A DNA stretch of 64,000 nt from Candidatus Riflebacteria bacterium HGW-Riflebacteria-2. Its GTDB lineage: Bacteria; Muiribacteriota; Ozemobacteria; Ozemobacterales; Ozemobacteraceae. The stretch spans positions 1,914 through 65,913 of the forward strand of contig PGYA01000012.1 in the NCBI GenBank assembly GCA_002839435.1, given 5' to 3'. Both the position numbers and the translations under genes were made by a program. Of the stretch, positions 15,953 through 47,100 are shown piece after piece. Each line of letters begins with the position of its first letter. Position 1 is the stretch's first letter. The notes beneath the pieces are model-generated. The model made no database searches. It had not been told where the DNA came from and saw only the letters and a program-made list of their open reading frames with translations.

Positions 15953-15955
15953 GAA

Positions 15956-21973: not shown

Positions 21974-21994
21974 TGGGAAAGAGTCTGCATCAAC

Positions 21995-25243: not shown

Positions 25244-25355
25244 AACAACCCTCCCGGTATACTGTAATTTCGCCACTAAAACTAACTCATCTTTCTCTTA
25301 TATGCAAGAGAAAGACGAGTTAAAAAGAAAAGGGGAATCCAGTTTGGGTTTTACA

Positions 25356-27169: not shown

Positions 27170-27177
27170 CTTGCTAT

Positions 27178-27262
27178 CTCCATCTTCTCGTGCTCGTAAT
27201 CGTAATCGGTATCGTAATCGTAATCGGCATTTGGTGGGGGCGCGTCGCGACGCGCCCCTACG
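27178..27262 (-). promoter_or_regulatory. Leader region of lipoprotein 1: GC-rich palindrome plus tandem GATTAC motifs
   Basis: In the sense orientation: CGTAGGGGCGCGTCGCGACGCGCCCCCAC hairpin, then CCGATTACGATTACGATACCGATTACGATTACGAGCACGAGAAGATGGAG, then about 10 nt, then ATG. The same pair of elements recurs at 54148-54282. Confidence 0.4.
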
Positions 27263-27268
27263 GGGTTG

Positions 27269-30200
27269 TTATCGTAATACCGCGATTTTGTGCGTATATT
27301 TGGTCTTTTTACCCCAGTCGTCGGGATCTCTGACCGTGATGCGGGCGAAATACACGCCGTTGGCCACGGCTTTGCCGCCGGTGGCGCGCAGATCCCACAA
27401 TACTTCCTGAACGTGTGTATTGCCCTGTTTGCTGCTGCCACGCAGGCTGAGGTTGCGCTGGTCGGCAACCTTGTGGCCGGCGACGTCGTAGATATTGACT
27501 TCGACTTCGTTCCAGTCGATATCGTTGCGGTTGGTGCTGATGCGCATGCTGGCACGGTTGCGGGCCGGGTTCGGGTATTGCACGACATCATAGATATCCA
27601 GCGGGGGCTGGGCCACGAAGCGCAGTGCCGGGGTGACCGTCATATTGCCGGCCTTGTCGGCGATGCGCAGGCTGATTTCGTGCTCGCCGCCGATCAGGTT
27701 TTCAACCGGCACAAAGTTGGCGGTGATGCCGGCTTTGTCGATCATCAGCGGCTGCAGTTTGCCGTCGAGCATGGCCCAGGCTGAATCACGGTCGAGACCC
27801 GAAGCGAGTTCCTCGAGCTGCCAGCTGAAGGTCGGGCGGGCTTCGCGGATCGGTTCATCGCCGATCTCTGTCGTCATATTGGCGCGCGGCGCCAGAACGT
27901 CTTTCATCATAGCGAAGGTTCCGCCGGTAGTTTCTTCAAAGCTGGCAACTCCATCGCTTACTGCGAAGGCAACTGGTTTCCAGCCTGCCGCCTCGCTGCG
28001 ATACATGCCAATGCCATTGCCGATCTGGCTTTCTTCAAGTTTAAGACTCATTCTGACCGGCTTGATAATGCGCCCGGCCGGAACATTGAGACTGTAAGCG
28101 CTGCCAACTGGCGTCAGTTCAATTGAATTACCGCTGCTGCTGCCGCTCAGACTGCTGCCGCGCAAAGTCGAGCGTTGCTCGGCACTGAGGTCAGCCATAA
28201 TGCTCGGCACGATCGAGGGCAGTGTTGTGTCTTCGCCGACCCTGGCAAGTTCTTCGTGGAGAACTGTAACCACAGAATTGCTCTTAAGCGTTCCAGGTTC
28301 AAACACCACCTCGAAGTTCTCATCAACCGACTTGACCGAAGCTCTTACCGAAGCATTCACATAGGCGGTTGAGAAGCTCATGTTTGAGGTGCCGAGGTTG
28401 CTGGAAGTGTCACGAGCGCTGACTTTTATGGTTGCTACGCCAGGATAGTTAGAATCTAGATGAGCTCCACCAATGAATATCATGCTGTTCGGGCCCGGAT
28501 TCAATATCAGCGAGATGGCTGAGGCTCCGCTCTGGGTGATTGTGGCAGTTGGTGCGCCAGACAGCGCTTCATTGGACTTGACCACTACACTTATGTCGAA
28601 TTCATTAGCCGGGCTGCTGAAGGCACTGATAAGGAGTTCCGGTGGTTTTATGTCGCGACCGAAGAACGGCAGGCTGCTGTTGCTGAGGTTGCCGAAGTTA
28701 TCCTGAACTCCGGTAGCGGTAATTGTATATTCAGTGTCTTCTACGATGTCGTCGCGGCATGAAATAGTTACCGAACTCTTATCAGCCCGAACTGTAACAG
28801 AAAGAATAGTGAGTTCTGTACTGGCAGTGCCGGTCGTGAGCTTATAATTGGAAACTGTTCTAGCCGTAGTTTCTTCGATCTGTTCGCTGAACACGACGTT
28901 GAACTGTTTCTGTGAAGTCAGGCCATCATAGGTGATGGTAGTAATCTCAGGGCCTTTGGTGTCGGCCGTGAAGGTAGCTATGTTGTAGCCAGTTTCAAGT
29001 GGAACACCGTCGAGACTTGGATACCCCACGCTAACAGTTATTGTATAGGCAATTCCATCTGCAAATGGCATGGTAAATGGCAGAGTTACCTTGTTGCCAT
29101 CTATATTGTCTACGGTCATTGCGCCGACAGATATGCCCACCGGCAGGTTTTCGGCAGAAGAGATCGTGAAAGGCGTGCCTGATGCGATGCCTGTGAATAC
29201 ATCATGAGAGAAAGTCAGCAGGGCGGTTCTGTCATTAACCTGTGTGACTCCGGTAACTCTGAAGCGTGAAGTGGTAACTTTGATGTCCACAGTGATACCT
29301 GAGGGGTTGCCGGCCAGGTCAGTTACCGTAACCTGATAGACGCCATCCTGAACAAGCTGCTGGCTAGTGTCTTTCCCGTCCCATAGGGCTGTCAGGTCTG
29401 TTGCACCAGGGCCTCCCTCGAGAAGGATTTCTTTGATCAGCGTCGAGCCGACGGTAATTTTTGCCATTGCAGTGCCCGAAGCGATATCACTCGGATCTGT
29501 CGTGGTAGCTACAATTCTGAGCTTATTAGTGGCGCCCCATGGGCTGAAGCTAGAGACCTCAGTACCGGTATCGTGCCGGTATAGCCTGATGGCTGAGATG
29601 GGAGGCGAAACTGTATCTATTATCAGAGTGGCAGTCGCCTTGCTGTTGGCACCGCTGCCGGTGCCGACGTTGCCGGCGAGATCGACGAGCGAAACCATGT
29701 AATTCCCGTCTTCGAGGCGGCCTGGTGGTGTATTGGTATGTTTACCATCAAAGCTGATCGTATATCCGGTTGTGGTCTGGCCCATCTGATATGTCTCTGT
29801 GGCAACTCCGCTGGTAAGTCGCATTTTTACTGTGTCGCCGCCAGCCGGGCCGGATACGTCTACTTTTACGAATGAGCTGACAATTGGACTGAAGTAAGCG
29901 ACATTGTTTACGGTCTTGACATTGGCGAACTGCCATGAACTAACTTTAGGCTCTTTGCCATCGTAAGTTATTGTGCCGCGCGTGCTGCCTTCGTTGTTGG
30001 CATCGTCGTATACCCGCAGTTCGAAGCTGATCGGGCCAAGCACCCCATAGAAAAGACCAGTAGCAGTAGATTTGCCATCCCAGGCAGCAGTCCCGCTAAG
30101 CCTGTCGGGAGCAAGAGTAAGAGGAATGCTGGCGATTTCTGTGCCATTGGTCGGCTGAATTCTCAGCCAGAGGTCAGTTGCAACCGGTGCCTGTTGAAAG

Positions 30201-33200
30201 GTTACCGTTATGGTCGCAACATAAGGCTCGACATAAGGGCTGAAAGGCTGGTTTACCAGAACAGTATTGTCTTTGGCGGTTGTCTGCTGGTAGGTCGTTA
30301 CTTCGTAACCACTTATAATCGGGCCTTTCGATCTGATCGTGACTGGAATAGAGGCGATTCGGCTGTCGGGATCGTTTGCTCCACGGTTGCCTGCCTCATC
30401 GAAACCGCCAGATACGAAGTAGTAGTATGGCCCACCCTGCAGGGTGTTGGCGTCGAAGTTGGCGGAGTTGGTGAATAGTGCCGTTCTGCCGTCTTGCCAG
30501 TTGCGGAATACAAAGGACATTACGGCTGTGCCGTCGAGCCCAAGCCGCATCTGCGGTTCCAGGGTGCCACTATCACCGCGGTTCATGTCTTCATCAAAGA
30601 TGACTTTGAAATAGCTGCCGGCAGGCATTATGCCGATTGTGTAGGAGCCAAGAGTTGTGTTCGGCTGAATTACATCGATTGCCCTCGGCATTTTGTTATC
30701 GAACACCATCTGCGCTCGCGTGTCATCAAATCCATATTGTGAAACACCGCTGGTTGTTTTCTTGCTCAGGTCAAATGCTTCACTTGCCTGGCCGAAAGCC
30801 GGTGCTCCGACATTGAATATGTCAGTAAAATTGCTTACCTGAACGTATACATCGATTTTCTGGAGATCGCCAGCTTCAGGCAGAGTAGTGTTGGTGTATC
30901 GCGCTACGGTTCGTGTAACACCACCCTGATTATGATCGAGCCAGCTGACGAATTTTCCGGTGTCGATGCGGACATTGTCGGACGATCTGTACAGTTCAAG
31001 AATGGGAACGATATTGCGGGCGATGGGTATGCTTACATCAGCCGACAATGTTGCTGTTTCGAAGGCTACTTCATAGAAGAAGTTGTCAGCAGGATAACCT
31101 TTGAACAGCTTGGTGCTGCTGGCTGTAGTGACCGGGCTGATAGCAACCGTATGAATTCTCGCCGGAGCATAACCTGTTGGCAAATTCTTCTGCAGCAACG
31201 ATGCCTGACCGCTTGTGCCCGGGAAGGCTTCGCTTAAATTGCCCCACAGATCTCTGAATGCGCTGTTCGAGCAGGCCAGGAAAAAGTCGCTGGTTCCCCA
31301 GCTGAGAATAGACTTCAATGCTTCATCGCTAAGCGGAATTCTGATAGTAGTCGAAGCGTAATCATTAAGCTCTGTATAGCTGTTGGCTCCAGTCCACCGA
31401 ACCATAGGATTGGCCTGACTGAGGCTGCCGAGAGATATTGAGCGGCTGTTGGCGGTATCCGCCTTCTCATAGATGTAAACCCTGGAAAGATCTGCGGGCT
31501 GGGTTTTGGTCAAGGACAGGGTACTTTCGTTATGAGCGTCGTTGAATAGTCTGGCTCTTCTGTTCTGTATGTTGATTGTAAGCATCGGAATCCCGCCACT
31601 GAGGTCGAGCAGGCTGCCGGCAGCTACCTGGAAAGGAGTGCTCAGCGGCGTGAGACTGGCAACTACTGCGTTGGTTGGCGTTATCGGCATGACACTATTG
31701 CCCTCTGTGTCGCGTATGAGAGGCGTCAATCCGTTATACGGTGGTGGCTCAAATTCAGTGCCGGTGATCTGCAGGTGAAACTGAGTGCCAAGTCGACCAT
31801 ACTTAAGTGCTATCCAGTCCTGCGCTTCCTGTGAAAGTTCAACTTTTAAAGATCGCAAAGTATTGAGAGTGCTGTACGGGTCAAATGTGTCTGAGGCTAA
31901 AGTGTTGAAGCGATATCTATTGACCCAGGTCTCATTATTTGACGCCCGGTTGCCCCATATTGCGAGATTTTTCAGAGTTGTGTCATCCATTGTCGTGGCA
32001 TCCATATCTTTGTCGAATTCGATATAGAGCTGTTTGCTTATTTCATCGCTGAGATTGGCGACATAGCGCCCGCCAATGAGCTTCGGTCGAGTATAGAAGT
32101 CGTTCGGTATCAGAAGCTGCTGAAGGGTGATGTTGCGCGAAATCGGCTTCAGCCAGTTGCCGGACTCATCTTTTACGACATGAAAGATAGGGTCGAAGCC
32201 GGTTTGTGTGTCATTTGTCGAAAGTGAAATGTAAAGGGTTCTGCGACCCCAGTCGGCGATTATCGTTCTGCTGGGAGAAGCCAGCGTAATCTGCATTGTG
32301 TCGGTGATGCTCTCTGTTATCAGAAGGTCATTATTGGCAAGACTTAGGGCAAAGGCTGTTTTATTGCCTACCTCTATGTTGGTGTGGGCGTTTCTGTATC
32401 CTATCCTGATCTGTTCGATGTCAAAAGTCGCCGGATTTACCGGTTCAGAGAACACCAGGCTCAGGTTCATTCCGTCATAGGTGGCATACGACAGTTCAGG
32501 GCGTTTGCTGTCTACTGCAAGCTGAGTGTATTCGTCGTCTACATAAGCCTTGTTGCCATAACGGTCGACGACATAGATTCTGAAAGTATGGGTGGCGAGG
32601 TCATAATTGCCATTCTCAAGCCGGTAATGCGCATATTTGTTCGGAAAGGTTATGCCCCCATCTGTAGAAAAGCGTGTTGCATTAACTGCATTGGGCTTTA
32701 ATTGATAAGTAGTGGTGGCGCCAATGGGAGAAAGGTCAACATAGGCCTGTCCGTTTGGAAGAGCTTCAGTCAGCTCGACCCAGGCAGATATGCTGTCAGA
32801 TGCGACACCATTGCCGACATTCGCTACCCAGTTCTCCGTATTCTGTGGATTGACAACTTCTACCCGCTGAACAATTGTATTAATATTGATAAGCGGGGGT
32901 TGATTATCGAAAGTCAATGCCGGGCTTGGGACAAGCTTGCCGGAAGTGGTCTGGTTATCGGCATCGTCGGAGACAAAGATTTCATATCTCAGAATGTCGC
33001 CATTGACTATCAGCCATTCACCTTCACCAACTTCAATCGGAACAGCAGTGGTTCCGGTAGCGACCTCAAAGGTGGCCTGCCAGACGTTGGTTCCTGTTAC
33101 CTGAGTAAGGGGTGCTCTGAACACTTCCTGCGAGCCCAGCGAAGTATAAAGAACGACCGTAGCTGAGCCCGGGTCGGTAAAACGTTCAATTTCGGCTTCG

Positions 33201-36200
33201 ACCCTGATTATGTCACCAATGTTGGCGGTGTTGGCAATAAGATTGTCGCCGTTGTTTTCAACTACTATCATTTTTGCGCTGCCGGCTTTGATTCTGGGCA
33301 ACAGTGTGTCTATTCCGAACGGATTGGCCGGATCACATTCTATTACGGAGTTTGCCATGGTCAGCGCAGGGGTGTCAGGGTGTAATACCTTGACCGGAAA
33401 GCTGACTGTATTTGCATCCAGGCCGTAATCACTGGCCGAGGCGACGAATGTGGCAGAGTAGATGTATGGAGCTCCGCTGGCAGGAACATAGCTCAATGGT
33501 GTCCAGTAAGTTCTGATATCTCCATCGTAATATCTGGCAGTTGAATCGTCACTGGTGCTGTTCGTGATAGTGCGAATATCAGCGAGGACTTCTGCAACCG
33601 GATCATTGGCTTCATTGTAAAGCGAAGAGAGAACCGCTGTGATTTTAACGCTGTCGCCAGATGCTATATAGGTGACAGGATTGAGTATGTTGTTGAAGTT
33701 CCGGTCTACGAAGAGATCGGTCCGCGACTGTGGAAATCCTGCAAAAACAGGGGTTTTTGATAAAAACCTTATGGGTATGGTATAGGCGACGGACATGTTC
33801 TTGTTGATGTCAAAGGCGAGAATAACCAAAGAAGAGCGTGTACCTAGACCTTCTGGAACTGTCCATTGATAGGTGTATTCATTTCCACCAGAGGGGTTTG
33901 GCGGAAACAGTGTCGGACTTGGTGCCGTAAGGCCATTTTCATTGAAGAGATTTTCAAAGTCTATCTGTGGCAGAATTCCGTCATGATAATTCAGACGCAC
34001 CTTGATCTGTATTACATCGCCGAGATTGGCTTCGCCCTGGCGGCCGTTATCGACGACAAAGGTGATCGGGTAAATTTCGATTGTCGGTGGGCGATTGTCA
34101 ACGACAACACTGTTGGTCGTGTTGGAGACAACTTCATTGCCGTTAACATCGGTGAGCTTTACGGTAAGATATACTGTTTCGCCGTTTGTTGTGCCGGCTT
34201 TTGGCATGTATTCCTTCTGAACCTGCCATCCGCCCGGTGCAACCAGCGGGGTGACCATGCTGGCGGTGTCAGTATAGCCGAATTTGCTGAGATCAACAGT
34301 AATGGTGCCCATATCATTTGAGCTGCCCTGAATGTTCAGTTCAAGTTTTACCACATCTGTCGCTACAAAGTGTTCGGTTGTATAATAGCCGTCGAGATCG
34401 ACAACTCCATTGTCATTGGTATCAACCACCTGGGTGACGGTGATGCTGTTAACAACCAGGGGCTGGTTATCGACAAAAAGCTGTTCGGTGCTGGCAAGTC
34501 CTCGATTACCTGCGTTGTCGGTGATCTGCACGGTAAATGTCGTGCTGGCACCATCAGTAGTACCGGTAACAACCGTGTGTGTATAACCATAAAGACCGTC
34601 ACCGGCAATACCGTCGTTATTGGCGCCGTCATCAAGCAGTTGCTGAGCAGAACTGCCTCCGATTGCGGTAAGGTTAACCGTTGGTGCGCCACCATCGAGT
34701 CGCCCAAGGTCTACTTTGGCGAGAATACTCACCTTGTCGCCAATATTTACCACGCCCTGTTTCCCTTTGAGATCCTGGAAGGTCGCTGAGGCATATTCGA
34801 TGAAAGGTGGTCGGCAGTCGACTTCGAACGGCGACGACAACGAGTTCATTATGTTTCCCGCCTTGTCTGTAACTGAAGCCCTGAAAATATAGCTGGGATT
34901 TTCGGTTGCAGACTCGAGGCAGTCGTGAATAAGGTAATAACGTCGTAGTATGGCATCGTAACTCATTACGTATGAGCTGGCGCCGCCGACTAATGAGAGA
35001 TCGATCGTGCAGGTTCCAGCATCAGGTTCGTCTACGGGGACTATTAATTCAAGCCGGTCACCGATGTTAACTACTCCTGACTTATTGAGGTCGGTTAGCC
35101 AGTTTACAGCCATTGGACCAACATCGCAGGGACGGTTGTCTATTTTTACCTTTATCGTTCCAGGTCTGCTGTTGCCGGCATTATCAGTAGCGGCAAAGGT
35201 GAAATAATATTCATTGTTGAGAGTTCCGGCAGGAACATCTGTGGTATAACTGTATGAGGCGATACCGTCATAGACCATGTCGACTGCGGCTGCTTCGCCA
35301 AATTCGCTTAAATTAAGCTTTACAGATTCACTGTCATGCACTGAAGCAGATGAGCTGGCGAGCTGAACTCTGAAGGTGACACGATCATTAACTCTTACGA
35401 ACGGATGAGATGGAGTTAGAACCGGATCTGATATGTAGGATGATCCGATGACGAGCGGTGGTTCGTTATCGACCATGACCGGGCTCGATACCGTCTGAAC
35501 CATATTTCCGGAATCATCCACTGCATAAATGGTGAAGGCTACGTTCTGATCATAGGGAAAACCGGTGGTAGGGTCGCCAACAACATGGTCGAGGCGATAG
35601 GTAGTTCCTGAATAAGGAGCCAGAGTGCTGCTGGCAGTTCCCCCTATCCTTTCAAAGTTCACCCATACGCTGCCGTTATCAATGTTGGCGACACTGGCAG
35701 AAATCGCCAACTGGTCGCCATGCCGTATTATCTGATTCGGCCGGGAGACATTCTGAATCTGGGCGCCGCTGAGAGTGGGCGGGGTGTTATCGACATAAAC
35801 TATAGGCAGAATGACCTGACTGATCTGGTTGCCGGCAGTGTCTTTGGCAGTCAGTGTGAAGGCGCGTGGCATGGTGTTTTCAGAGGTATACTGAATTACG
35901 TTGTAGAGAAGCTCAAATGTGGTAGTAGCGGAATTGTTGAACGGAACGATCTGGTTAGCTACACCGCCAATGGCACTAAGATCTACGGTAATGATAACAT
36001 CGTTCATGACGCTCGACATATTGCCGTAAAAGTGCAGCTGGTCGTTGATTATAGCGATGTTGTCGCCGATGATGCCGCCGTTTTCAATCATTGCGACGCC
36101 CATTGGCAGTGAGAATTCTGGTGGTATATTGTCGAGGGCAAGCGGGTTTGATGTGCGCGGATTGCTTGGGTTGCCGGCATCATCCGTAGCTCTAACTTCA

Positions 36201-37180
36201 AAGGTTACGAAATTGCTTTGTAGATCTGGTACGTCGGCGAGGTAGTAGTCATACTGATAAACAGCCTCGGAGCCGGGTGTGTTGCCTGAAACCCTTATCA
36301 TGGTGATTCCGGTCGGGAACAGAGTTGCGTTATACATTACAACCTTGTCGAAGTCATAATTGCCGATAACTGCCTGAATCCTTATGGTATCTCCAGAGGT
36401 TACCCAGCTTTTGCCGGTGGTCATGTTTACGGCTGTAACCGACTGAATTTCAGGTTCAACTGTGTCATAGGAAACAGATAGATCCCAGCTGCGGCTGTTT
36501 CCTGCGTCATCTGTTGCAGCCACGCTTATCGGCGTCGCTGTGCCTTCACGGTTAAGTGGAAAGGTCAGGCTGAGGCGATATACCGGGGATGAATCGGGAC
36601 CACCAACCCTTGACATTATATGACTTGCGCCGAGTCCGATGTTCGTCAGGTTAGCTCTTGGAACGTCGCTGTCAAAAGAAGTGCTCATTTCCATGTCGAT
36701 CTGCAAATTGTCGCCGACCTTATAGACACTGCTGAGACCGGTTGCACCGGTGGTGGAAGGCCCATAAAGCGAATTGGGTCTGCGGTTATCGACCAGCAGA
36801 CTGCCACCTATTCGTACTCCGCCTTCATCGGCGAATTGAAAAGTCTGTACTGTGTTGTTTTCTACGCTGCCCGGAGAAACAGTTAGAAATGCTGAATAAA
36901 AATCGCCTGCTATGTTTACCAGTGGGAAATAGGGGTTCCCGAATGAACTCAGGTTGACATAAGGGTACTGGCTTGGATCAGCAGTGTTGGAACGGCACGT
37001 GAAAGTGATTGTATCACCAATGCCGGCAATGCCGTCACCGTTGAGATCTGAAGACAGTACGGCTGTCTGATTGGTAATGGCAGCCTGTCCTGTTCCTGTC
37101 GCGAACAGCAGGAGGAGCAGTATAAATACTCTCCTGATCAGAGTTTTATTCGATCCAGCGTTTGCCTTTTTTATCGTCAT
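27269..37180 (-). CDS. Giant secreted surface or adhesin-like protein (3303 aa) with T9SS-type C-terminal sorting domain
   Basis: ATG at 37180 with a GGAGGA RBS and signal peptide (the tracker TTG at 37279 is an extension). Dozens of Ig-like, Asp/Gly/Asn-rich repeats. The C-terminal roughly 100 aa matches the T9SS CTD / FlgD-Ig-like consensus: QYPNPA, VNIYDVAGHKVA, WDLR..GK.VANGVYFARI, ...KIAVLR. Confidence 0.8.
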   Translation of the reverse strand: MTIKKANAGSNKTLIRRVFILLLLLFATGTGQAAITNQTAVLSSDLNGDGIAGIGDTITFTCRSNTADPSQYPYVNLSSFGNPYFPLVNIAGDFYSAFLTVSPGSVENNTVQTFQFADEGGVRIGGSLLVDNRRPNSLYGPSTTGATGLSSVYKVGDNLQIDMEMSTSFDSDVPRANLTNIGLGASHIMSRVGGPDSSPVYRLSLTFPLNREGTATPISVAATDDAGNSRSWDLSVSYDTVEPEIQSVTAVNMTTGKSWVTSGDTIRIQAVIGNYDFDKVVMYNATLFPTGITMIRVSGNTPGSEAVYQYDYYLADVPDLQSNFVTFEVRATDDAGNPSNPRTSNPLALDNIPPEFSLPMGVAMIENGGIIGDNIAIINDQLHFYGNMSSVMNDVIITVDLSAIGGVANQIVPFNNSATTTFELLYNVIQYTSENTMPRAFTLTAKDTAGNQISQVILPIVYVDNTPPTLSGAQIQNVSRPNQIIRHGDQLAISASVANIDNGSVWVNFERIGGTASSTLAPYSGTTYRLDHVVGDPTTGFPYDQNVAFTIYAVDDSGNMVQTVSSPVMVDNEPPLVIGSSYISDPVLTPSHPFVRVNDRVTFRVQLASSSASVHDSESVKLNLSEFGEAAAVDMVYDGIASYSYTTDVPAGTLNNEYYFTFAATDNAGNSRPGTIKVKIDNRPCDVGPMAVNWLTDLNKSGVVNIGDRLELIVPVDEPDAGTCTIDLSLVGGASSYVMSYDAILRRYYLIHDCLESATENPSYIFRASVTDKAGNIMNSLSSPFEVDCRPPFIEYASATFQDLKGKQGVVNIGDKVSILAKVDLGRLDGGAPTVNLTAIGGSSAQQLLDDGANNDGIAGDGLYGYTHTVVTGTTDGASTTFTVQITDNAGNRGLASTEQLFVDNQPLVVNSITVTQVVDTNDNGVVDLDGYYTTEHFVATDVVKLELNIQGSSNDMGTITVDLSKFGYTDTASMVTPLVAPGGWQVQKEYMPKAGTTNGETVYLTVKLTDVNGNEVVSNTTNSVVVDNRPPTIEIYPITFVVDNGRQGEANLGDVIQIKVRLNYHDGILPQIDFENLFNENGLTAPSPTLFPPNPSGGNEYTYQWTVPEGLGTRSSLVILAFDINKNMSVAYTIPIRFLSKTPVFAGFPQSRTDLFVDRNFNNILNPVTYIASGDSVKITAVLSSLYNEANDPVAEVLADIRTITNSTSDDSTARYYDGDIRTYWTPLSYVPASGAPYIYSATFVASASDYGLDANTVSFPVKVLHPDTPALTMANSVIECDPANPFGIDTLLPRIKAGSAKMIVVENNGDNLIANTANIGDIIRVEAEIERFTDPGSATVVLYTSLGSQEVFRAPLTQVTGTNVWQATFEVATGTTAVPIEVGEGEWLIVNGDILRYEIFVSDDADNQTTSGKLVPSPALTFDNQPPLININTIVQRVEVVNPQNTENWVANVGNGVASDSISAWVELTEALPNGQAYVDLSPIGATTTYQLKPNAVNATRFSTDGGITFPNKYAHYRLENGNYDLATHTFRIYVVDRYGNKAYVDDEYTQLAVDSKRPELSYATYDGMNLSLVFSEPVNPATFDIEQIRIGYRNAHTNIEVGNKTAFALSLANNDLLITESITDTMQITLASPSRTIIADWGRRTLYISLSTNDTQTGFDPIFHVVKDESGNWLKPISRNITLQQLLIPNDFYTRPKLIGGRYVANLSDEISKQLYIEFDKDMDATTMDDTTLKNLAIWGNRASNNETWVNRYRFNTLASDTFDPYSTLNTLRSLKVELSQEAQDWIALKYGRLGTQFHLQITGTEFEPPPYNGLTPLIRDTEGNSVMPITPTNAVVASLTPLSTPFQVAAGSLLDLSGGIPMLTINIQNRRARLFNDAHNESTLSLTKTQPADLSRVYIYEKADTANSRSISLGSLSQANPMVRWTGANSYTELNDYASTTIRIPLSDEALKSILSWGTSDFFLACSNSAFRDLWGNLSEAFPGTSGQASLLQKNLPTGYAPARIHTVAISPVTTASSTKLFKGYPADNFFYEVAFETATLSADVSIPIARNIVPILELYRSSDNVRIDTGKFVSWLDHNQGGVTRTVARYTNTTLPEAGDLQKIDVYVQVSNFTDIFNVGAPAFGQASEAFDLSKKTTSGVSQYGFDDTRAQMVFDNKMPRAIDVIQPNTTLGSYTIGIMPAGSYFKVIFDEDMNRGDSGTLEPQMRLGLDGTAVMSFVFRNWQDGRTALFTNSANFDANTLQGGPYYYFVSGGFDEAGNRGANDPDSRIASIPVTIRSKGPIISGYEVTTYQQTTAKDNTVLVNQPFSPYVEPYVATITVTFQQAPVATDLWLRIQPTNGTEIASIPLTLAPDRLSGTAAWDGKSTATGLFYGVLGPISFELRVYDDANNEGSTRGTITYDGKEPKVSSWQFANVKTVNNVAYFSPIVSSFVKVDVSGPAGGDTVKMRLTSGVATETYQMGQTTTGYTISFDGKHTNTPPGRLEDGNYMVSLVDLAGNVGTGSGANSKATATLIIDTVSPPISAIRLYRHDTGTEVSSFSPWGATNKLRIVATTTDPSDIASGTAMAKITVGSTLIKEILLEGGPGATDLTALWDGKDTSQQLVQDGVYQVTVTDLAGNPSGITVDIKVTTSRFRVTGVTQVNDRTALLTFSHDVFTGIASGTPFTISSAENLPVGISVGAMTVDNIDGNKVTLPFTMPFADGIAYTITVSVGYPSLDGVPLETGYNIATFTADTKGPEITTITYDGLTSQKQFNVVFSEQIEETTARTVSNYKLTTGTASTELTILSVTVRADKSSVTISCRDDIVEDTEYTITATGVQDNFGNLSNSSLPFFGRDIKPPELLISAFSSPANEFDISVVVKSNEALSGAPTATITQSGASAISLILNPGPNSMIFIGGAHLDSNYPGVATIKVSARDTSSNLGTSNMSFSTAYVNASVRASVKSVDENFEVVFEPGTLKSNSVVTVLHEELARVGEDTTLPSIVPSIMADLSAEQRSTLRGSSLSGSSSGNSIELTPVGSAYSLNVPAGRIIKPVRMSLKLEESQIGNGIGMYRSEAAGWKPVAFAVSDGVASFEETTGGTFAMMKDVLAPRANMTTEIGDEPIREARPTFSWQLEELASGLDRDSAWAMLDGKLQPLMIDKAGITANFVPVENLIGGEHEISLRIADKAGNMTVTPALRFVAQPPLDIYDVVQYPNPARNRASMRISTNRNDIDWNEVEVNIYDVAGHKVADQRNLSLRGSSKQGNTHVQEVLWDLRATGGKAVANGVYFARITVRDPDDWGKKTKYTHKIAVLR

Positions 37181-37288: not shown

Positions 37289-37338
37289 AAAAGAGTGGCC
37301 GGCAGATCGATTTTTCGACCTGCCGGCCTATCCCTTTT
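37289..37338. terminator. Intrinsic terminator after lipoprotein gene 2, separating the two giant-gene cassettes
   Basis: Stem GGCCGGCAG / CTGCCGGCC with T-runs on both sides. Confidence 0.5.
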
Positions 37339-37366: not shown

Positions 37367-38119
37367 TCATATTCCGCTCAGACCTGCTGCTTTGAGGGTG
37401 TTATAGATCTGAGCTACTGAAGAAGTAGCAGAGGTGTCTTCGCTTTTTGCAATGAGTATCAGGCGGCGCGCTTCGACATCGTCGCCGGCATTGGCGCGCC
37501 AGAAATGTGCGTAGGCCAGCATGGCGCGCGCTTCGGCTGTGCTGACGCCAATTGCCTGATGCTCCAGTGTCAGCCGATATGTGTCTTTGTCGAGACCGAT
37601 ACCAATAAGAATGTTTACTGCTTCTGACATTCTACTCTGACTGCCCTGCTGAATTAGACCCAGAGCGTAACCGAGTAGTGATTCTTTGAGATCACCGGCC
37701 TGGATGAAGTCGGACATGCCGGAGAGGGTGTTGTAGTATTTGACTCGTGACCATCCGCGGCCGTTATAAGCCTCGCGGCGTTCATCAACGGTAGCTCTTG
37801 TATCATTTATAGCGTCTTCGAAGTAAAGCATGGCGCCGCCCCAGTTGCCTGAATCCATGGCGAGCCAGCCTTTGTCTATTTTCTGGCTGACGGTCAGGGT
37901 AGTATCGGTTCCTGTGCCAGTTCCAGTGCCAGTGCCAGTGCTGGTTCCGGTTCCTGTGCCGGTGCCGATGATGATGACCGGCCCGGCCGGGTTTTCGCCG
38001 GGCAGAGTCTGACGGCCAGTGCCGCCCCCGCCGCCACCGCAGCCGATAACAAGGCTGACGCCGATGATGAACATTACGAATGCAGTTTTAATAAGGTTTT
38101 TCGTGGTAAGTTTAAGCAT
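37367..38119 (-). CDS. Lipoprotein with (Gly-Thr)n linker (partner of giant surface protein 2)
   Basis: Lipobox VIGC, a G6 run, then a GTGTGTGTSTGTGTGTGTGT linker, then a domain paralogous to 26474-27169. The ATG lies 3 nt after the giant gene's stop, with a GAGGT RBS inside the giant gene's 3' end. Confidence 0.65.
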   Translation of the reverse strand: MLKLTTKNLIKTAFVMFIIGVSLVIGCGGGGGGTGRQTLPGENPAGPVIIIGTGTGTGTSTGTGTGTGTGTDTTLTVSQKIDKGWLAMDSGNWGGAMLYFEDAINDTRATVDERREAYNGRGWSRVKYYNTLSGMSDFIQAGDLKESLLGYALGLIQQGSQSRMSEAVNILIGIGLDKDTYRLTLEHQAIGVSTAEARAMLAYAHFWRANAGDDVEARRLILIAKSEDTSATSSVAQIYNTLKAAGLSGI

Positions 38120-38122
38120 TTT

Positions 38123-41100
38123 TTACCTCAGCACTGCCAGTTTGAAGTTTCGTTTCGTTTTGATCGAGGGGTCGTCCGGGTCACGGATTACGATTCGGGC
38201 GAAGTAGACGCCGTTGGCGACCTGCTTGCCTTCGCTGTTGCGCAGATCCCATGGGATATCGTAAAGGTAACGTTGCGCAACCACATTCTCTTTCACGGCC
38301 TTGATGTAATCGAGGCTGCCGACTTTATGACCGGCGACATCGTAGATGGTTACCGTCACCAGATCGCTGGTAAGATCGTCGCGGTTGGCACTGATTCTGA
38401 TGAACATGCGGCGGTTGGCCGGGTTCGGATATTGCATGATCTGACTGATGCTAAGCGGCAGCACAATCTGGAACCTGGTAGCCGCCATCAGGCCGGTATT
38501 GCCGGTGCGGTCAGCCGCTTTGATCACGAGATCATGGTCGCCGGCGACCAGGTCTGCGATTGGTTTGAACAAGAAGTTGCCATTCCCATCTACTTGAACC
38601 GGCTGACCAGGTCCACCGTCGATGCGGGCGATAACGGTTCTGGGGTCGATACCTGAGCCGGCTTCTTCGACACGGCCTCTGAATTCGGGTCTGGCAGTGC
38701 GGAATGGCTCACTCATTTCCATGTCGGCGGCAAGATTCAATCTTGGCGCAGCGATATCGCGCATTACCGCGAAGATCTGCGGTGAGCCGGTGCGGGCAGC
38801 GAATGCCCCTTCCTTATCACGACTGGCGGTTACAAAGTTCCAGCTGTCGCCAACCTGGTTGAACAGGGCGATACCGGTGGTAGAAGTGGCTTCGCCGCTG
38901 GTAAGGCTGACTCCGAATCCGTCTTTGACTTTTGCCTTGAGAATGCCGATTTCATAAGCGTCAGAAACTGGAACCAGTTCGCTGTGGTTTGGCAATACCG
39001 TTTCGCTGGCGAGATTACCACGAAGTGAGCCGATTGCTGCTCTGAACTGATTTTGCAGCGCCGTTCTTATTGCGCCACCAGTTGCTTCAGACTTTTCGAG
39101 TTCATGTTTGAGGATTTTTACGGTAGCGTCTGAATTCAGACTCTGCTCGCTGAAATCGAGGGCAAGCCTGTTGTCGGCAGATTTAAGAATCGAGGCTCGG
39201 GCCGATGATATGTAGGCTACCGTGAAGCTGTTGGTGCCGTAGCCGGTATTTTCTGCAATATCCTGTGCTTCGGCACTGAGCGTGCCGTTGCCATTGTATG
39301 AAGGATTAAGGCTGACTCCCAGCATATATGACATATTATCGGCGCCCTTCTGCATAGTTGCAGTAACCACACTCGGTGCGCCGCTCTGACTGACACTCAG
39401 GTCCGGAGCTGCTTTTAGCGGTTCGTTGCTGGTAACGACTACGATGATGTCGTTTTCATTGGCCGGGTTCGAGAAGGCTGATACGATAAGGGTCGGCGGC
39501 GTGCGGTCCTGGCCCTTGAAAGCTTTCGAAGTGCTGCTAATGTTGCCAAGATCGTCTTTGATATTGCTGGCAGTAATTGTATAATCTGCATTCTCTGTAA
39601 GAGCCGGGCTGACAGTGACAACTACGCTGCGTTTATCGCCTGCCACGACTACCTTGCTTACAGTATAGGTGCCGGTTGCGGCAGTTACTACATAGTTGGT
39701 TTTGGTGCCGGCGCTTACACTTTCGCAGGCTTCGTCGAATTCGACTCTGAATTCCTGCTGGCCGGCCAGACCGGTGAAAGAAACATCGGCGATAACCGGG
39801 CCACGGGCATCGGCGACCAGTGTCGCCTGAGAGGCTGTAGAAAGGACAGCGGCACCGAAGATGCTCTTGATGCTGGCCGCGACAGTGAAGTCGTATGATT
39901 GTGCATGGGTGAATGCTGCGACGTTAAAGTCGAGAGCACGTTCCTGGGTGCGCGCCAGTCCACTGATAGCGAGCGTTGGTGTGGCTGTTATCGGAGTTCC
40001 GCCCAGAGTGCCGGCATCGATATCGTGGTTGAACCAGATGCGTGCTGATGCTGAAGCCGTCTGTTCCATTCCCATAACTCTGAATGGCGTCGTTCTTGCA
40101 AAAACCGTTGTCGAGATGCCGGCCGGGTTGCCGGCGAGGTCGGTTGCCGTGAGCGTGTAATAACCATCTATTACCAGATTGCCGACGGCATCGGTACCGT
40201 TCCAGGTGGCGCTGGCGGTTCCGGCGTCTACCGGCAGGCGTTTAACCAGTGTACCAAGCTGGTCTCTGACTTCGATATACCAGATGTTGGTTTCGTCAAC
40301 CGGAGTAGTCGGAGAACTGGCTATTATATTGAGATCACCGGCTGAAGGAGCGAAAGAAGTGACAGTGAGTCCATTCTGCGTCATCACATAAGTTGCGACA
40401 TCAGGAGCCAGTGAATCGATTATCAGATCGAAGTCAAGAACAATGGTCAGACCGTCAGAAGCAAGTCCGGCGACGTTTCCGGCAGCGTCTACCATGTCGA
40501 GTTTGTAGGCTCCGTCAGGCATTCGATCAAATGGCGTGCGACTGTACTGGCCTTCGAAATTGCAGGACCATTTGTCGTTGCCGGCACTGGTCAGCAGATA
40601 AGTGTCGGTAGAATTGGTGCCGCGAATCCGCAGACGTGGCGCCATCGTCTCGAGGTTCGATAGAGAGAAGGTCGTGGTGAAATAGCGTTGCCGGTCAGGG
40701 CTGAAGTAGACTGAGTCGGTAGCCGTTTCCGCACCGACGATAGCGATGTCGCGCACCAGCGGGTCGTCGTTATCCATTGTCCAGAAGTGGCTTTCAAGAG
40801 AGAGATCGCCTTTGTCGTCGGCAACCCTTATGATATATGTGGTTGCCGTTGCCGGCCCATTCGTGCTTGTCCAGGCGAAACTCGCGATTAAACCATTGAG
40901 AACAAGAGGGTAAGAAGCGATTGTCGTGTTGGCGAGCATGAAATGCAGATGTATCGGTTCTGCATCAGGCGGTGCTGACAGCTGAAGTGTAATGGTAGCC
41001 ATGTTTGGTGTGTAGTTTAAGTTGAAAGGCTGGTCGGTCAGCATTTCCAGGCCACTGGCAAGGGTTGCGCTGGCGGTGGTTGACTGGTACGAAGTTGTAG

Positions 41101-44100
41101 TCCATGAGGCGACGATCGGGCCGCGTGAGCGAACGACCATGGTGCCGGCGTTGCTGGTGTCAAGTTTGTTGCCGGTGAGATCCCAGGCTACAACGCGGCA
41201 GTCGTAATCACCCTGTGGCAGGGCGTTGCTGATTGTGGCAGTATTTACGAACTGTGCTGTGCCAGATGCTGTCCAGCCTTTGAAAGTACAGGCGATCTGG
41301 GCTGTTGTTGTAGCAATAACCAGAGTCGGTGTAGCCGAAGACAGTTCATTCATGTGCTCGTTGAACTGCACTGTGAAGGTGGCGCCGCCGGCTGTAGCAC
41401 TGACGATCGGCAGGGCGGTCGAAGTCGTGGCGACCAGAACGATCGGAGCTGTGCGGTCGACGACAAACATCGTTATCGAAGCGGTGCCGGTGGCAAAGTT
41501 GCCGGCCATGTCGGCGGCGGTGATCAGGTAGTGCCCTTCTGCGATCGTGGCAGCGCTGGCGACTGAAATCGAATAGGTGCTGATGCCGGTGGTAAGATTG
41601 CTATACATGTTCCAGGTGTAAGGCAATGCCGTTGTCGTGGCTATTACCAGAACGAGAGAATCGGTTGCCGTTGAGGCACTGGTCTCAAATCTGACATTGA
41701 GTGCGCCGTGCAACTGCTCGTTGTAATAGAGCGGGTTGTTTATGGCATTGGAGACGGTACTGATGGCGGCAGTGGCAACTACCGGCTGGATGCCATCATA
41801 GACTATTGGCAGGGTGTAAGTGGCGCTGATGTTGCCAATATTGTCGATAAGCCTGAAGCTGTAAGATTCGGTGGCAGCTCCTGGATTGCCGAGAGCGCTT
41901 GAGTTAAGCGTGAACGTGCTGATGCCACCAACTGCACCGGGCACCACAGCTTCTGATGCGAGATTGTTTGAGCTGTCGTAGATTCTTATCAGGTGCGGTT
42001 CTTGATATGGATGTCCGCCGGCAGTGCGATAATTGAGTGACAAAGAGGCAATGTCGGGCCCGGCGGCAAAGGCTTCGAATGACAACGGACGATTGATCAG
42101 CGCTTGAGTTCCGTAAAGGTCGGTCTGGTTGCTGACCACCTGGAATGCTGTCAGGTCTGGTTCCTCAGTGAACAATACAATCGTGAACGAGCCCAGGTCG
42201 GGAACAATGTTGGGGTTGCCGGCATAGTCTCTGGCGCCGCTTATCTGATAACTGTAGGTTCCTGGTGTGAATGACTTGTCGATGGCGACAGTGTTGGTGA
42301 ATTCGCAGGTGCTTGAGCTTATCCATCTGGTGGCGCGCATGGTTATCGTGCCGCTGTCGGAAGCCAGCGTCAGGGTTGGCGAAGCAGCACCAGTATTCAT
42401 ACCTGAATCAAAGGTGAGTTGGAATATTCCTGTATTGGTGGCCACGACGCCGGTGCTCGTCGAAGGCAGACCGGCGATGATTGCCACAGCCGAAGCCAGT
42501 TTCGGTGCGTCGGTATCGATTATTAAAAGCGAGGTCGATGCAGTTCCGTCGGCTATGTTGCCGGCGGTATCGACGCCGGTGATCAGATAGGCGCCGTCCG
42601 GCAGTGTGGCTACATTACCGGTGCTGACATCGACGAGAGAAGATAACTGCATGCTATGTGACAAAGCGCCGGTTGTCATATCAGCAACATAGGTCGCGTT
42701 AGTATTTATATTTAACGCGAGAAGTCTCAATACATCTGGGTTGATTGTGGTGATGCCGATGCTTGTGTCTGCGACATTGGGCGAATGATACAGGGCTATA
42801 GCGGGAGCATATTCAGTATTGGTAGCAATGCCCGGTCCTGATGTCATGGCGATGGCTGTATTGATCGTTGGGGTGGCGGTGTCGTATCTGAACCCGAAAG
42901 AGGGAGAATAATCGCCGCCGGAGTCGCGAACGCGCAGAGTGTAGCTGGCGTCCTGTGGGTGCCCGCCTGCCCATGACCAGGATGCGTTTGCCGGTTCGAA
43001 AGGTATGATAGATGGAGTGGGCAGAGGCAGGCCGGTATAACTGCCGACATCTGTTGCTCCTGAAGAGACTATCAGATCGTAAGTGTCGAATGTAGTGCCG
43101 ATAAAGTCGATGCGGATGGTGGCTGAGCCTGGAGCTGTATAGAACGGATTATAGCCGAGATTAGCCTGCGGCGTGGTGCCATAGATATGGCTCTGATTAG
43201 TATAATTAGTTATGTTCACATAAGGTCCGGCAGTATAGACTTCGATGGTCTTAGTCTGGTCGCTGGCAGGGGTTCTTGTGTTGAATGCAAGGTCTCTTCC
43301 ACCGGTCATGGTGAATCGGTATTGGCCGGTTTCAAGAGCAGAAGTTATGTCGCCAATATTTTCGTAAATAGCAGTTGAAGCTACGGCAGGATTTACCCAG
43401 CCTACGAAACGCCAGTTGATGGTCGAAGCATTTCTAGTGAGAACAAGGTTTGGTTCCTGAGCCGGGTCTGCATCCATTGGCTCAGAGAAGGTTACAACCA
43501 GCCTCGTTTCAGAGGCCAAACATTTGCCAATGTAGTAAGGCCCGGGCTGTCCGGCCGAGTATTCTGGTACAATAGATAGGAGAACTGGTGCAGAGGCATC
43601 TGCGTAAACTTTGCGGGTTGCCGAACCGGTGCCGATATTGCCGGCAAGATCGACAACTGTAAAGGTATAGGGCCCGTCAGCATAGGTGCTGCCAGTGGCA
43701 AGAAAGTAGTTGCCAGGGGTGCCGCTATTGTTTAACAGCTGAGCCGAAGTTGCCGTGCCATTGTAAACGGCGAGACGGAGCGTATCGGTTGTGACTGCAG
43801 CAAAGTTGAGAATCAGGTCGCCATCAAGTGGATTGAAGTAAGTATACTCGGCAGTGGTTGAGCCGACTCCCAGTCCGCCGATAGTAAAGCTGGTCATTGC
43901 AGGAGGAAGGCCATCGTATACTATGTTGAGAACATTATCAGTGCGGTTGTAAAGAGAGTCTCTGATTCTCACGGCATAGCTTTTCGGGCCGATGTTTGCG
44001 GCGGCTATGGCAGAAATTGTTGCTGTGGCAAGGCTTCCGCTGATAGATAATGGTACGCTTCCTTGCAGCACGCCACTGATCGGGTCGTAGATCTCCAGGT

Positions 44101-47100
44101 AGTGAGGGAAGTTCTGCGTTGGCGCCGTTGTGTAGGTCACACTGAATATTGCGTTGCCTCCGATATACTGACTCCAGGGCTGGTCGATCAGTATGTCAGT
44201 TGAAATGGTGGGCTGAACTGTGCGCAAGACAACATCGCCGGCGCTGACTTCGGGGGCGTATGTGCGAACTTCAACCGGGAAAGCGGTTGCGCCGGTCGTT
44301 GTCATGACGTTGCCGGCGACGTCGGTGCCGCCGGAAACCTGATAATACCAGGTGCCGTTTGGCAGGGTAGAGGTAAAGGCAGAGTCATTAGTGAACTCGG
44401 CAGTCGCTGAAGCAGACCAGGAAGAGAACGTAAAAGTCATGGTCTCGGTCGAAGTTGCAAGCGTGAGAGTTGGAATGACCGCCTGGTTCATTGCTTCGTC
44501 GAAGTTCACGCGGAATATTGAACCGGCCGGGATTTTGCCGATGTAATCGTTCGGTATGATCGAGTTGACCATTACCACAGGCTTTTGCGTGTCAAGAATA
44601 ACTTCGGCTGAGGCAGTGTCGGTAAACCCTTCGACTGCTCCGTCGTTTTTGCTGTTCAGATCGTAAGCATAGGATGCAGTCATATCTTTGGTGTTGCCAA
44701 AAATGTCAGTTACGCCATAAATGTTTACTACCGCCGGAACACTCTGCAGGTTAGATGGCAGAGCAGCCGTGTTCTGGTAGCGGAAGACGCCACGTAGTCT
44801 GCCATCGACAGTACGTTCTGTGTAGTTGATGAATGTTCCTGAGGCAACCCAGGTGTTGCCGGCATCCTGTAAGAAAATGCCTGCTCTGGGTGTGGTCTGC
44901 CATTGCAACGGCAGCGGGATGCCATCCATATCAGGCGGGAACACTTCGACTTCAAATATAAGTTCACCTGCGAGCTTGGCACTGACTGGCGGCTTGTCGC
45001 TCATCGAAACGGCCGCCAGAGTTGCGCTTGTGGCTGGGGTTCCTGTGGCTACCTGCATTGCGCCCGGGTAGCTTGAAGGCAGATAGGCAAGGTTGGAGTT
45101 GCCCCACAGGTTGGTGAAGGCACCGGCCTGGATCGTCATTTCCCAGATCGGACTGGGATTGTTCTTATAGAGTGCAAGGATGTTTACCAGATCGTCGTCG
45201 TTAAGTTTCAGGGTTACGGTTGTGCTTGCAAACAGCGGATTAGTCGTAGATGCGAGAGGCTCCAGCTGTAGAACCTGGGTGCTGCCACTGTTGCTTTCGT
45301 GAAGAATTATCTTGCCATGAAAGCCGGTAACGCGGTTGTTGAAAGTAGGCACTGGCTCAATAAGATAGGGCGTCGCGTTGTTGTTGTATGGACTGTTCGA
45401 AAGCAGCAGCAGGTCGCTTGCAGAAAGAACCAGACTGCGTTCTCCTATACTCAATTTAGGATCATCAGGCGGCCCAAGGAATGCAAAGTTAGATACGGGG
45501 CGGTTATCCAAGCCTGCGAGGGGAGAACTCGGGTCAATATGGGTGACCGGTTTGCCGAGAAAGTCAATGACAAAAGGCTTAAGTGTGTTTCTGCAGGCAA
45601 TATAGAGTTTCTGGCTGGTATTGTTGGTAAGCTTTTTGGCTACCCAGCGGCGACCTGTTTCGCACAGAGAGATACGCAGATGGTTTGGACTTTGCCACAC
45701 GAATGTATCAGAAGCCTGTGCCGTACTCGAGGCCTGAAATACATAACCTAGATTGTAATCTACATTTGTTTCAAACGTTCCACTGGTGTCGGAAGCCAGC
45801 AGCAGCACTGCCGCCGTTGCTGCGAGGCTATCCAGATCCATGTTCTTGCTGAACAGCAGGTCTATGTTAATGGAATTAGGCCAGTTCTGTTCTACCGTAA
45901 AATGTGTTATGCGCGCAGGTTCGCGCCATGCCGAATCGGTGATGGTAATCGGGAAATATTCTACGGGTCGCAATTCGTTACCCCACATGTCAGTTACGGC
46001 TGAAGTAGCGGTATTGGTGACCTTGAGGTAAATCGGTGTAGATGCCCATCCAGCCATTGTTCTGAGATGGCTTATGTCAAGTTCAAGCTGAAAGCTTGAC
46101 CAGTCAAGAATTTCGTTCGGAGCAGTAGCATTGAAGGTAAGGCTTGCCGGCGCGCCGAGAGTAGAACTGCCAACAATCTGCCAGTTTTCGACAACAAAAG
46201 TGTCGTTGTCGAAATTCTCGGAAAGTGCTACTGAAAGAATGTTGCCATCAAATTCAGCGCTGACAAGTGTTGGCGCTATGTTGTCAATGAACAGGCGCTC
46301 GGAGGTGTAGGTTGCATTGCCGGCTTGATCAATGGCATACAGCCAGACTCTTCTTGAAACACCGTCTTCGATTGGGGGCAGTCGGTTTACGGTATAACCC
46401 GAAATGGTAACCGCGCTGCTGCTGTTCTCTGTTTTCAGATCGACTGTGCCGGTGCCGAATTCTCTGAAGTCGAGCCAGGCTTTGTGAATGATGAGATTGT
46501 CCGCAAAGGTTATTGATGCGATAAGGCCATCGCCGGTCGTGCTGCTGGCCAGGTTGTAGATCAGGATATCCGTGCTGGTAGTCGCCAGATAATAGTTGGG
46601 AAAGAGGTTTATGCCGGTGGTGAGAGCTGTCGGCATGATGTTTCGCACGACAAAATCACCTGTTGTGTAAGTTGTCGTGCTTACATTGTTGACATTATCG
46701 ACTGCTCTTACTCTGTAAAGAAGCTCTTCAGTTATTACAGGCCAGGCAGTCGCTGAATGAGTGGCAATTGTAATTGTGCCTTCATGCCGATTGTTGGCAG
46801 AATTGAAGGTTAGTGTCGTTGTGGCATAATCGACTTCTACACCGGCGGTGAGTGACGCAAGATTTCCGTAAAGTACTGCATCCTGATAATAGGTTGCGCT
46901 TGCCCAGACCATCACGACATCGCCCGGGCCAGCGAAACCGGGGTTAACCAGACCGTTGTCCTGCCAGAGAACGAGACCTGCAAGGTTATCGTCCAATATC
47001 ACCGGCCGACAGTCGATTTCAGTAAAAAGCTGCGAATTCGATGAGGCAGAATTCCCGGCATCATCCAAGATGGATGCAGTAAATCGTACGTTTGTGTATT

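Follow-up and report, generated by a model that had tools for sequence, protein, structure and literature searches.

Tetratricopeptide-repeat lipoproteins with predicted disordered tethers encoded beside giant C-terminal-domain proteins in Riflebacteria

What do two small lipoproteins do that are each encoded immediately after the gene of a giant secreted protein? This question is raised by a 64,000-nt stretch of contig PGYA01000012.1 of Candidatus Riflebacteria bacterium HGW-Riflebacteria-2, which is referred to here as the window. The first lipoprotein, lipoA (37367-38119, minus strand; 250 aa), follows G1 (38123-50185, minus strand), a gene for a 4020-aa secreted protein of immunoglobulin-like (Ig) repeats that ends in a C-terminal domain (CTD) resembling those of type IX secretion system (T9SS) cargo. 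The second, lipoB (26474-27169, minus strand; 231 aa), follows G2 (27269-37180, minus strand), which encodes another giant Ig-repeat CTD protein of approximately 3300 aa. A first-pass annotation, made from the DNA alone, had described lipoA and lipoB as partners of CTD proteins that carry an unrecognised helical domain behind hypervariable tethers. The observation is confirmed and the interpretation is partly supported. What is new is a conserved cassette of giant and lipoprotein together with a conserved motif in the tether, while the fold of the domain is ordinary. CTD-type sorting signals and PorV-like barrels are widespread outside the Bacteroidota, and to our knowledge the handling of CTD cargo there is essentially undescribed.

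A lipoprotein family beside giant CTD proteins

Gene neighbourhoods came from exact-protein look-ups and from scans of GTDB species genomes and of metagenomes, which yielded 27 and 6 loci, respectively; the loci were annotated with hidden Markov models built from the window sequences. At about 30 loci, in Riflebacteria and in unclassified metagenome-assembled genomes (MAGs), a member of the lipoprotein family lies beside a 1,400-4,000-aa Ig-repeat protein with a T9SS-like CTD. The first-pass annotation had named, as the outcome that would speak against its proposal, a generic repeat protein with no association to CTD proteins elsewhere. Instead, adjacency to a CTD giant recurs in essentially every locus examined, in Riflebacteria as well as in distant unclassified lineages.

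The arrangement was examined separately for the two types represented in the window. For the A type, to which lipoA belongs, the ATG lies 3-4 nt past the stop codon of the CTD giant, or overlaps it by 4 nt, in 20 of 20 loci with readable upstream DNA; the overlap is the case in L002, and 19 A-type loci besides the window have the 3-4-nt spacing. An ortholog of G2 comes next wherever the locus extends far enough. For the B type, to which lipoB belongs, a gap of 30-163 nt separates the lipoprotein from the giant (8 of 8 loci), and a PorV-like gene is next in seven of the eight. In the B-type locus L031, no PorV match was found in the approximately 10 kb of downstream DNA that was read. The corresponding gene in the window (25356-26339, minus strand), which closes the cluster, encodes a 327-aa outer-membrane beta-barrel of the PorV/PorQ family, a family-level assignment that rests on its match to NCBIfam NF033709 (123.1 bits against a cut-off of 90, E 1.8e-35). 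In a distant branch (L003-L008, L042 and L043), the lipoprotein begins 11-42 nt past, or overlaps, the gene of a 1,370-1,670-aa Big_13/FlgD_ig protein ending in ...ANGVY...K[IL]AV[LV]R, and further CTD giants are found in L042 and L043.

In the window, the stop codon of G1 and the ATG of lipoA are separated by 3 nt, a single AAA codon in the same frame (CTG AGG TAA AAA ATG; 38117-38128, minus strand), and the Shine-Dalgarno sequence GAGG of lipoA is formed by the last Leu-Arg codons of G1. Across this 3-nt gap lipoA is translationally coupled to G1. This coupling, and the tether motif described below, go beyond what the first-pass annotation had contained.

The giants and the lipoproteins have diverged together. 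Neighbour-joining trees calculated for 21 lipoprotein repeat domains and for the C-terminal 500 aa of the upstream giants contain the same three clades (A, B and the distant branch), and this congruence indicates that the giant-lipoprotein pair duplicated and diverged as a unit. Judging from these trees, duplication of the pair would predate the divergence of the sampled Riflebacteria, with each lipoprotein having stayed with its own giant. In addition, the proteins upstream of the lipoprotein in L003 and L007 share with G1 and G2 only their C-terminal 470-495 aa (24-27% identity, E 1e-36 to 3e-24). Since the similarity is limited to this region, a conserved C-terminal module including the CTD appears to travel with the lipoprotein; the N-terminal Ig arrays of the giants differ between lineages. 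G1 contains Big_13, Big_5, FlgD_ig and sub-threshold Por_Secre_tail domains, and the C-termini of G1 and G2 match the PorU model at its CTD end (E 9e-16 and 5.5e-18, respectively). At their extreme C-termini the giants are conserved from lineage to lineage, for example as KIAVLR, KLAVLR and KLAVVR.

The lipoproteins themselves are paralogous, with 43% identity over 168 aa (BLASTP, E 7e-39). The lipobox is ...SLVIG|C27 in lipoA, where it follows a signal peptide of aa 1-26, and ...FLASG|C21 in lipoB; both fit the pattern [LVI][ASTVI][GAS]C. The lipobox Cys is the sole invariant column in an alignment of 31 family members (31 of 31), and every sampled single-domain member has a lipobox. By these sequence features, lipoA and lipoB are bacterial lipoproteins with predicted acylation. 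The product of lipoA is 100% identical to the hypothetical protein CVV42_06565 of HGW-Riflebacteria-2.

Searched with a profile, 1.84 billion cluster representatives yielded 333 proteins at E<=1e-3. Approximately 90 of these are single-domain proteins of 195-280 aa that align over the full domain length, and the others are long multi-repeat proteins that match repeat by repeat. A-type orthologs were found in more than 20 Riflebacteria loci, with repeat domains 46-81% identical to one another, and lipoB orthologs in seven other loci. Both types were recovered in five MAGs, always as one A and one B per genome. Two kinds of N-terminus occur: the Riflebacteria kind consists of the Cys, a Gly run, a motif and a low-complexity spacer, and the distant branch, which falls outside the A and B clades, has a short Gly-rich tether of 6-28 aa without the motif. 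In the distant branch, the aconitase encoded in L003 has nearest named relatives at no more than 66% identity, from mixed phyla. No description of the lipoprotein family was found in the literature.

The shared domain of roughly 170 aa was reported by the first-pass annotation to be helical, with the blocks AYNG.GWS, GVS.AEA.AMLA..FWR and SED.S..S.VAQIY.TL, and these blocks are conserved in the orthologs. Its suspicion of a fold like the tetratricopeptide repeat (TPR) is borne out by structure prediction. The domain occupies aa 75-250 of lipoA (37370-37897, minus strand) and 26477-27001 (minus strand) of the lipoB gene. An AlphaFold2 (AF2) model of the lipoA domain, built from a 10-sequence alignment, has nine helices with a mean predicted local distance difference test score (pLDDT) of 95.9 and a predicted template modelling (TM) score of 0.89, and corresponds to about four TPR units and a capping helix; a conserved non-helical loop is inserted between helices 6 and 7. 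A Foldseek search of the Protein Data Bank (PDB) with this model returned TPR proteins only, among them consensus TPR (CTPR) designs, MamA, p67phox, PilF, LapB and BamD, at 10-21% identity and a best E of 5e-4. The probability was 1.0 and the TM score 0.6-0.7 for consensus TPR, MamA and p67phox (0.63/0.70 for the consensus design CTPR4), with lower TM scores for PilF (2ho1, 0.56) and BamD (5waq, 0.49). A profile search of PDB sequences likewise matched only generic or designed TPRs, with designed CTPRs reaching 2e-32. Modelled in this way, the shared domain is a divergent four-repeat TPR domain with a capping helix, an ordinary fold.

The description of the domain as unrecognised stands in part. 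The family has no dedicated Pfam or NCBIfam model; lipoA has no Pfam or NCBIfam match, and lipoB reaches 21 bits with Pfam TPR_19 against a cut-off of 25. However, the fold is TPR, and distant members pass the thresholds of Pfam TPR_1/2/8/19 (P0025, TPR_1 at 33.1 against 27.8; P0032, TPR_19 at 44 against 25). Family signatures are AYNG[LR]GW, H..IGVS.AEAHAMLAY.YFWR and a C-terminal GL[TS]GI.

Known TPR lipoproteins were considered as identities for the family and rejected. A scan of the 31 members against NCBIfam produced matches far below threshold to PilW, BamD, MamA, Tgl and similar models. The PilW/PilF/Tgl pilotins were matched by 15 of the 31 members (best E 2.6e-9), with P0025 at 28.7 bits against the TIGR02521 cut-off of 154, and lipoA and lipoB gave nothing at E<=1 with the pilotin models TIGR02521 and NF033762. 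Pilotin identity also fails on context: the conserved neighbour is the CTD giant, and pil genes are near in the window only. Weak matches to BamD (TIGR03302/YfiO) occurred in 13 of the 31 (best E 8.5e-8), with none for lipoA and lipoB. PorW/SprE (NF052312) was matched by one of the 31 (E 2.8e-4). The architecture of PorE (TPR, beta-propeller and OmpA_C) also does not apply, as the family is single-domain, at 200-270 aa.

The tether and its motif

The tethers read GGGGGG...GTGTGTGTSTGTGTGTGTGT in lipoA and GSGGGSG...GTGGGGGGTGGGGVG in lipoB (aa 21-56; 27002-27109, minus strand), exactly as the first-pass annotation had quoted them. Its description of them as flexible agrees with the AF2 model of full-length lipoA, in which pLDDT is below 50 at mature residues 1-9 and 18-45 and about 50 at residues 10-17, which belong to the motif. 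The tether is thus predicted to be disordered. Docking of the motif on the groove of its own TPR domain was considered and rejected, as pLDDT values of about 50 give no confident self-docking.

The motif lies between the Gly run and the spacer. In lipoA it is GRQTLPGENPAGP (aa 35-47; 37979-38017, minus strand), preceded by a run of six Gly. It is nearly invariant in all A-type orthologs as GRQ[TIV]LPGENPxGP, with the variant GRYTIPPEIPTPG in the B type, and appears to be more conserved than the TPR domain. Within approximately 660 kb of sampled DNA, GRQxLPGENPxGP is confined to the lipoprotein family. Apart from lipoA and lipoB, no convincing lipoprotein is encoded in the window.

The spacer of lipoA is (Gly-Thr)10 with one Ser (aa 52-71; 37907-37966, minus strand), encoded by an imperfect GGNACN hexamer array. 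The first-pass annotation had placed a DNA repeat of this kind around 37900-37970, and Tandem Repeats Finder (TRF) locates a period-6 array at 37906-37967 with 10.3 copies and 78% matches. The pattern is found nowhere else in the window: if up to one mismatch is allowed, (GGNACN)4 has eight matches there, which overlap and all lie within 37902-37966 on the minus strand, and none in 100 shuffles. Among N-termini of the Riflebacteria kind, the spacer varies in composition: (GT)n, (ST)n, (PPGGT)n, T-rich, PEP-rich and D-rich forms occur. The whole tether spans 40-59 aa in A-type proteins and 29-36 aa in B-type proteins, and the number of GT-type dipeptides varies among A-type orthologs.

Candidate role and alternative explanations

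In the proposed mechanism, lipoA and lipoB would be paralogous outer-membrane lipoproteins, each composed of a lipid-anchored Cys, a disordered tether and a four-repeat TPR domain for protein binding, and each would be the dedicated, co-expressed partner of the giant CTD surface protein encoded immediately upstream. At the outer membrane, the TPR domain would bind the cognate giant, most likely through the giant's conserved C-terminal module of about 500 aa including the CTD, and the lipoprotein would either present the giant to a CTD sorting route of the PorV type or keep it on that route. The tether would have two parts: GRQxLPGENPxGP, as a putative docking-type linear motif, and a spacer, (Gly-Thr)n or Gly-rich and drifting in length, which would set the reach of the TPR domain from the membrane.

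TPR domains are scaffolds for peptide and protein binding. A role of lipoA and lipoB as cargo-dedicated TPR adaptors or anchors is suggested by their nature as TPR lipoproteins, their ancient and tight linkage to CTD giants, the coupling of lipoA and the co-divergence of the pairs, with tight coupling favouring a stoichiometric partner; we consider the chances of this role to be about even. A wider proposal is made only tentatively. The lipoproteins may represent an unrecognised, cargo-dedicated class of component in CTD-dependent sorting or anchoring outside the Bacteroidota, with a minimal module of giant and TPR lipoprotein (plus a PorV/PorQ-like barrel), in which the motif docks the lipoprotein to the barrel or the giant and the TPR groove holds the C-terminal module of the giant. 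If true, this would amount to a non-covalent, lipoprotein-mediated surface anchoring of adhesin-like proteins of 300-400 kDa.

Several observations weigh against the adaptor or anchor role. The CTD assignments of the giants are below threshold: G1 and G2 score 22.8 and 21.2 bits with PF18962 (Por_Secre_tail) against a cut-off of 27, and the giants' TIGR04183 score is 18.9 against 23. No recognisable T9SS core genes (translocon or PorU-like sortase) are present within the 64-kb window, and no paper linking Riflebacteria with T9SS was found in the literature. In L021, an OmpH-like gene and no CTD giant precedes the A-type gene, although a G2 ortholog still follows. In L044 and L045, the lipoprotein follows CarboxypepD_reg proteins, and the only CTD protein next to it is encoded convergently.

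The closest functional analogue is found in the Bacteroidota, where T9SS cargo with type B CTDs is encoded next to cargo-specific PorP-like partners, as in SprB-SprF and PG1035-PorP, and these partners are proposed to bind and anchor the cargo independently of covalent attachment to anionic lipopolysaccharide (PMC9143113). In both cases, an adjacent, paralogous, cargo-specific outer-membrane partner accompanies a very large CTD protein. However, SprF and PorP are beta-barrels whereas the Riflebacteria partner is a TPR lipoprotein; the CTD here, in Riflebacteria and unclassified MAGs, is type A-like (Por_Secre_tail/FlgD_ig-like); and a PorV/PorQ-family barrel is additionally encoded after lipoB. 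PorW/SprE and PorE are also TPR lipoproteins of CTD-dependent secretion at the outer membrane (PMC8754138, PMC7192894). Unlike lipoA and lipoB, these are much larger, multi-domain core components that occur once per genome and are not linked to cargo. PilF/PilW/Tgl, BamD and NlpI resemble the family in size (about 200-290 aa), lipobox, all-TPR body and role as protein-binding adaptors of the outer membrane. They differ in genomic partner and in lacking the family signatures, and the long disordered tether with the GRQxLPGENP motif distinguishes the proteins described here. The fold is also common to generic TPRs such as CTPR, MamA and p67phox, from which the window copies differ in diverging too far for Pfam and in carrying the insert between helices 6 and 7.

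Instead of remaining bound, the lipoprotein could serve as a transient periplasmic holdase or targeting receptor that meets the giant on the inner face of the outer membrane, recognises its C-terminal signal (...K[IL]AVLR-COOH or the CTD) and subsequently releases it. This is the principal alternative and, by analogy, a real possibility, though a rather unlikely one. BamD recognises the beta-signals of outer-membrane proteins (OMPs), and the TPRs of PEX5 and Hop bind C-terminal peptides. The conserved extreme C-termini of the giants and the generic TPR similarity to BamD and PilW agree with such a receptor, as does the Gly at position +2 with no known surface-export signal, which would fit the default of facing the periplasm from the outer membrane if the E. 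coli Lol rules apply. However, the tight translational coupling suggests stoichiometric co-production, which is commoner for stable complexes, and because the C-terminal strand is nearly identical in G1 and G2, its recognition would leave the retention of two co-diverging paralogs unexplained. If the proteins were instead TPR lipoproteins of general envelope biogenesis, such as a secretin pilotin of the PilW/PilF/Tgl type or a BamD-like protein, their place near the giants would be incidental. Their size, lipobox and TPR content are like those of PilW, Tgl and BamD, the weak matches given above are to the same families, and pilB and pilT lie 2.5-5 kb downstream in the window (20806-23851). This explanation is disfavoured and seems highly improbable, given that all scores are far under their cut-offs, that the neighbour conserved across lineages is the CTD giant and not pil or bam genes, and that the two paralogs have diverged together with two giants. 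In our view, it is very unlikely that the lipoprotein hitch-hikes in the operon and has no physical contact with the giant, its target being some other process, of the cell wall or of glycans, that is needed when the giants are made. L044, L045 and L021 do show the family beside other secreted or outer-membrane proteins, but the 3-4-nt gap persists across Riflebacteria, gene order is comparably tight in distant lineages, and the lipoprotein has co-duplicated with the giants' C-terminal module.

A further alternative concerns the tether, which the first-pass annotation had regarded as slippage-prone and able to vary the reach of the domain. If the (GT)n tether were a contingency locus, frequent in-frame slippage would adaptively vary this reach within populations. 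Orthologs have GT/GS regions of different lengths, and one 12-nt (GTGT) unit distinguishes L036 from L037 and L038, in genes that are approximately 96-97% identical (judged by eye from the alignment). This difference between nearly identical genes points to in-frame gain or loss of units on short time scales, and L037 contains 3.2 perfect 12-mers. However, the array is codon-scrambled, with at most 2-3.8 perfect units per ortholog (3.2 in the window), so no long perfect tract is present; this single indel is the only one seen at such identity; and the tethers of L037 and L038 are identical although they come from two metagenome contigs (Ga0209200_1016922 and Ga0116142_10004903). Neither the B-type nor the distant-branch tethers contain a DNA repeat, and length drift is usual in low-complexity linkers. 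A contingency locus is thus unlikely. We read the variation as the ordinary drift in length of a low-complexity linker whose composition is under selection, since an imperfect DNA repeat would permit such drift without having the look of a contingency locus. Of the earlier wording, slippage holds to the extent of this one indel, with no evidence for high-frequency switching, and hypervariable applies to the switches of composition (GT, ST, PPGGT, PEP and D-rich) across deep lineages, while variation in length among orthologs is moderate.

The conserved, coupled and co-diverging pair of giant and TPR lipoprotein offers a concrete candidate for an adaptor or anchor dedicated to one cargo. The pair also provides an annotation signature (lipobox, Gly run, optional GRQxLPGENP motif and a four-TPR body with AYNG[LR]GW and IGVS.AEAHAMLAY.YFWR) for approximately 90 clusters that are now labelled as hypothetical or as TPR repeat proteins. 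The carriers are uncultured, and the immediate impact is on annotation and hypotheses rather than mechanism.

Transcription units and other features of the loci

The cluster appears to be divided by two terminator-like hairpins, both of which are consensus matches only. The first lies 3' of lipoA (37297-37328, minus strand), with a 14-bp stem of which 10 pairs are G-C and the tail ACTCTTTTAG, and the second lies 3' of the PorV-like gene (25282-25323, minus strand). Their positions suggest two transcription units, G1-lipoA and G2-lipoB-PorV-like. The mechanically called open reading frame (ORF) of G2 reaches back to a TTG at 37279; the ATG at 37180, with GGAGG ahead of it, is the likelier start. 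In the spacer between G2 and lipoB (27170-27268, minus strand), a perfect G+C palindrome, GGGGCGCG-TCGCGA-CGCGCCCC, stands directly after the G2 stop with no T-run, and is followed by approximately 5.5 tandem copies of the hexamer TTACGA (TRF 27194-27226). This palindrome and hexamer array may be an attenuator, or an element for RNA processing or stability. A 60-aa antisense ORF opposite the lipoA tether (37830-38012, plus strand) has a (PV)n run that is the reverse-complement reading of the (GT)n tether, and was rejected as a gene.

Among the loci collected, the L021 region (8671-10540) is the sole one with an A-type gene that has no CTD giant ahead; the upstream OmpH/Skp-like ORF is 334 aa. 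Two large ORFs upstream in L021 (1165 and 1675 aa) have no significant Pfam match, with one faint match to SGL (E 0.006). L044 (240-4705) and L045 (273-5222) belong to a divergent sub-branch in which two TPR-lipoprotein paralogs alternate with CarboxypepD_reg proteins; the latter end in an OMP-like ...GGGVNVRF, and the converging CTD protein is 1500-1600 aa (Big_5/BNR). In three distant-branch loci, a nucleoside-diphosphate kinase gene is found upstream of the giant-lipoprotein pair (L003, 4748-5197; L007, 5069-5509; L043, 421-873); it directly adjoins the pair in L003 and L007, and one TPR gene intervenes in L043. This shared gene suggests that these unclassified lineages are related to each other. 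The contigs L015, L021, L025 and L030 carry the typical Riflebacteria operon but were deposited under MAG names of other phyla (Methylomirabilis, Avigastranaerophilus and Erysipelotrichia), and these deposits are probably mis-binned or mislabelled.

The remaining genes of the window are housekeeping, type IV pilus and glycan-related genes. The region 7929-19674 encodes three paralogous membrane proteins of the PTPS_related type (575, 595 and 610 aa) and a GT2 glycosyltransferase, in addition to a B12/radical-SAM enzyme, an asparagine synthase and a membrane TPR protein. This cluster, upstream of the pil genes, looks like a locus for glycan or envelope modification. A 555-aa secreted VWA-domain protein (51782-53449, plus strand) has three near-identical C-terminal repeats (...GYFGEMVDGKWHGQRICIHSRAN.YDLETFEHGV.HG...). 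Lastly, a 1167-aa ATPase of the PilB/GspE type (57121-60624, minus strand) differs from the ordinary 618-aa PilB (21995-23851) in a C-terminal extension of approximately 600 aa that contains three ...FKPWQF... repeats.

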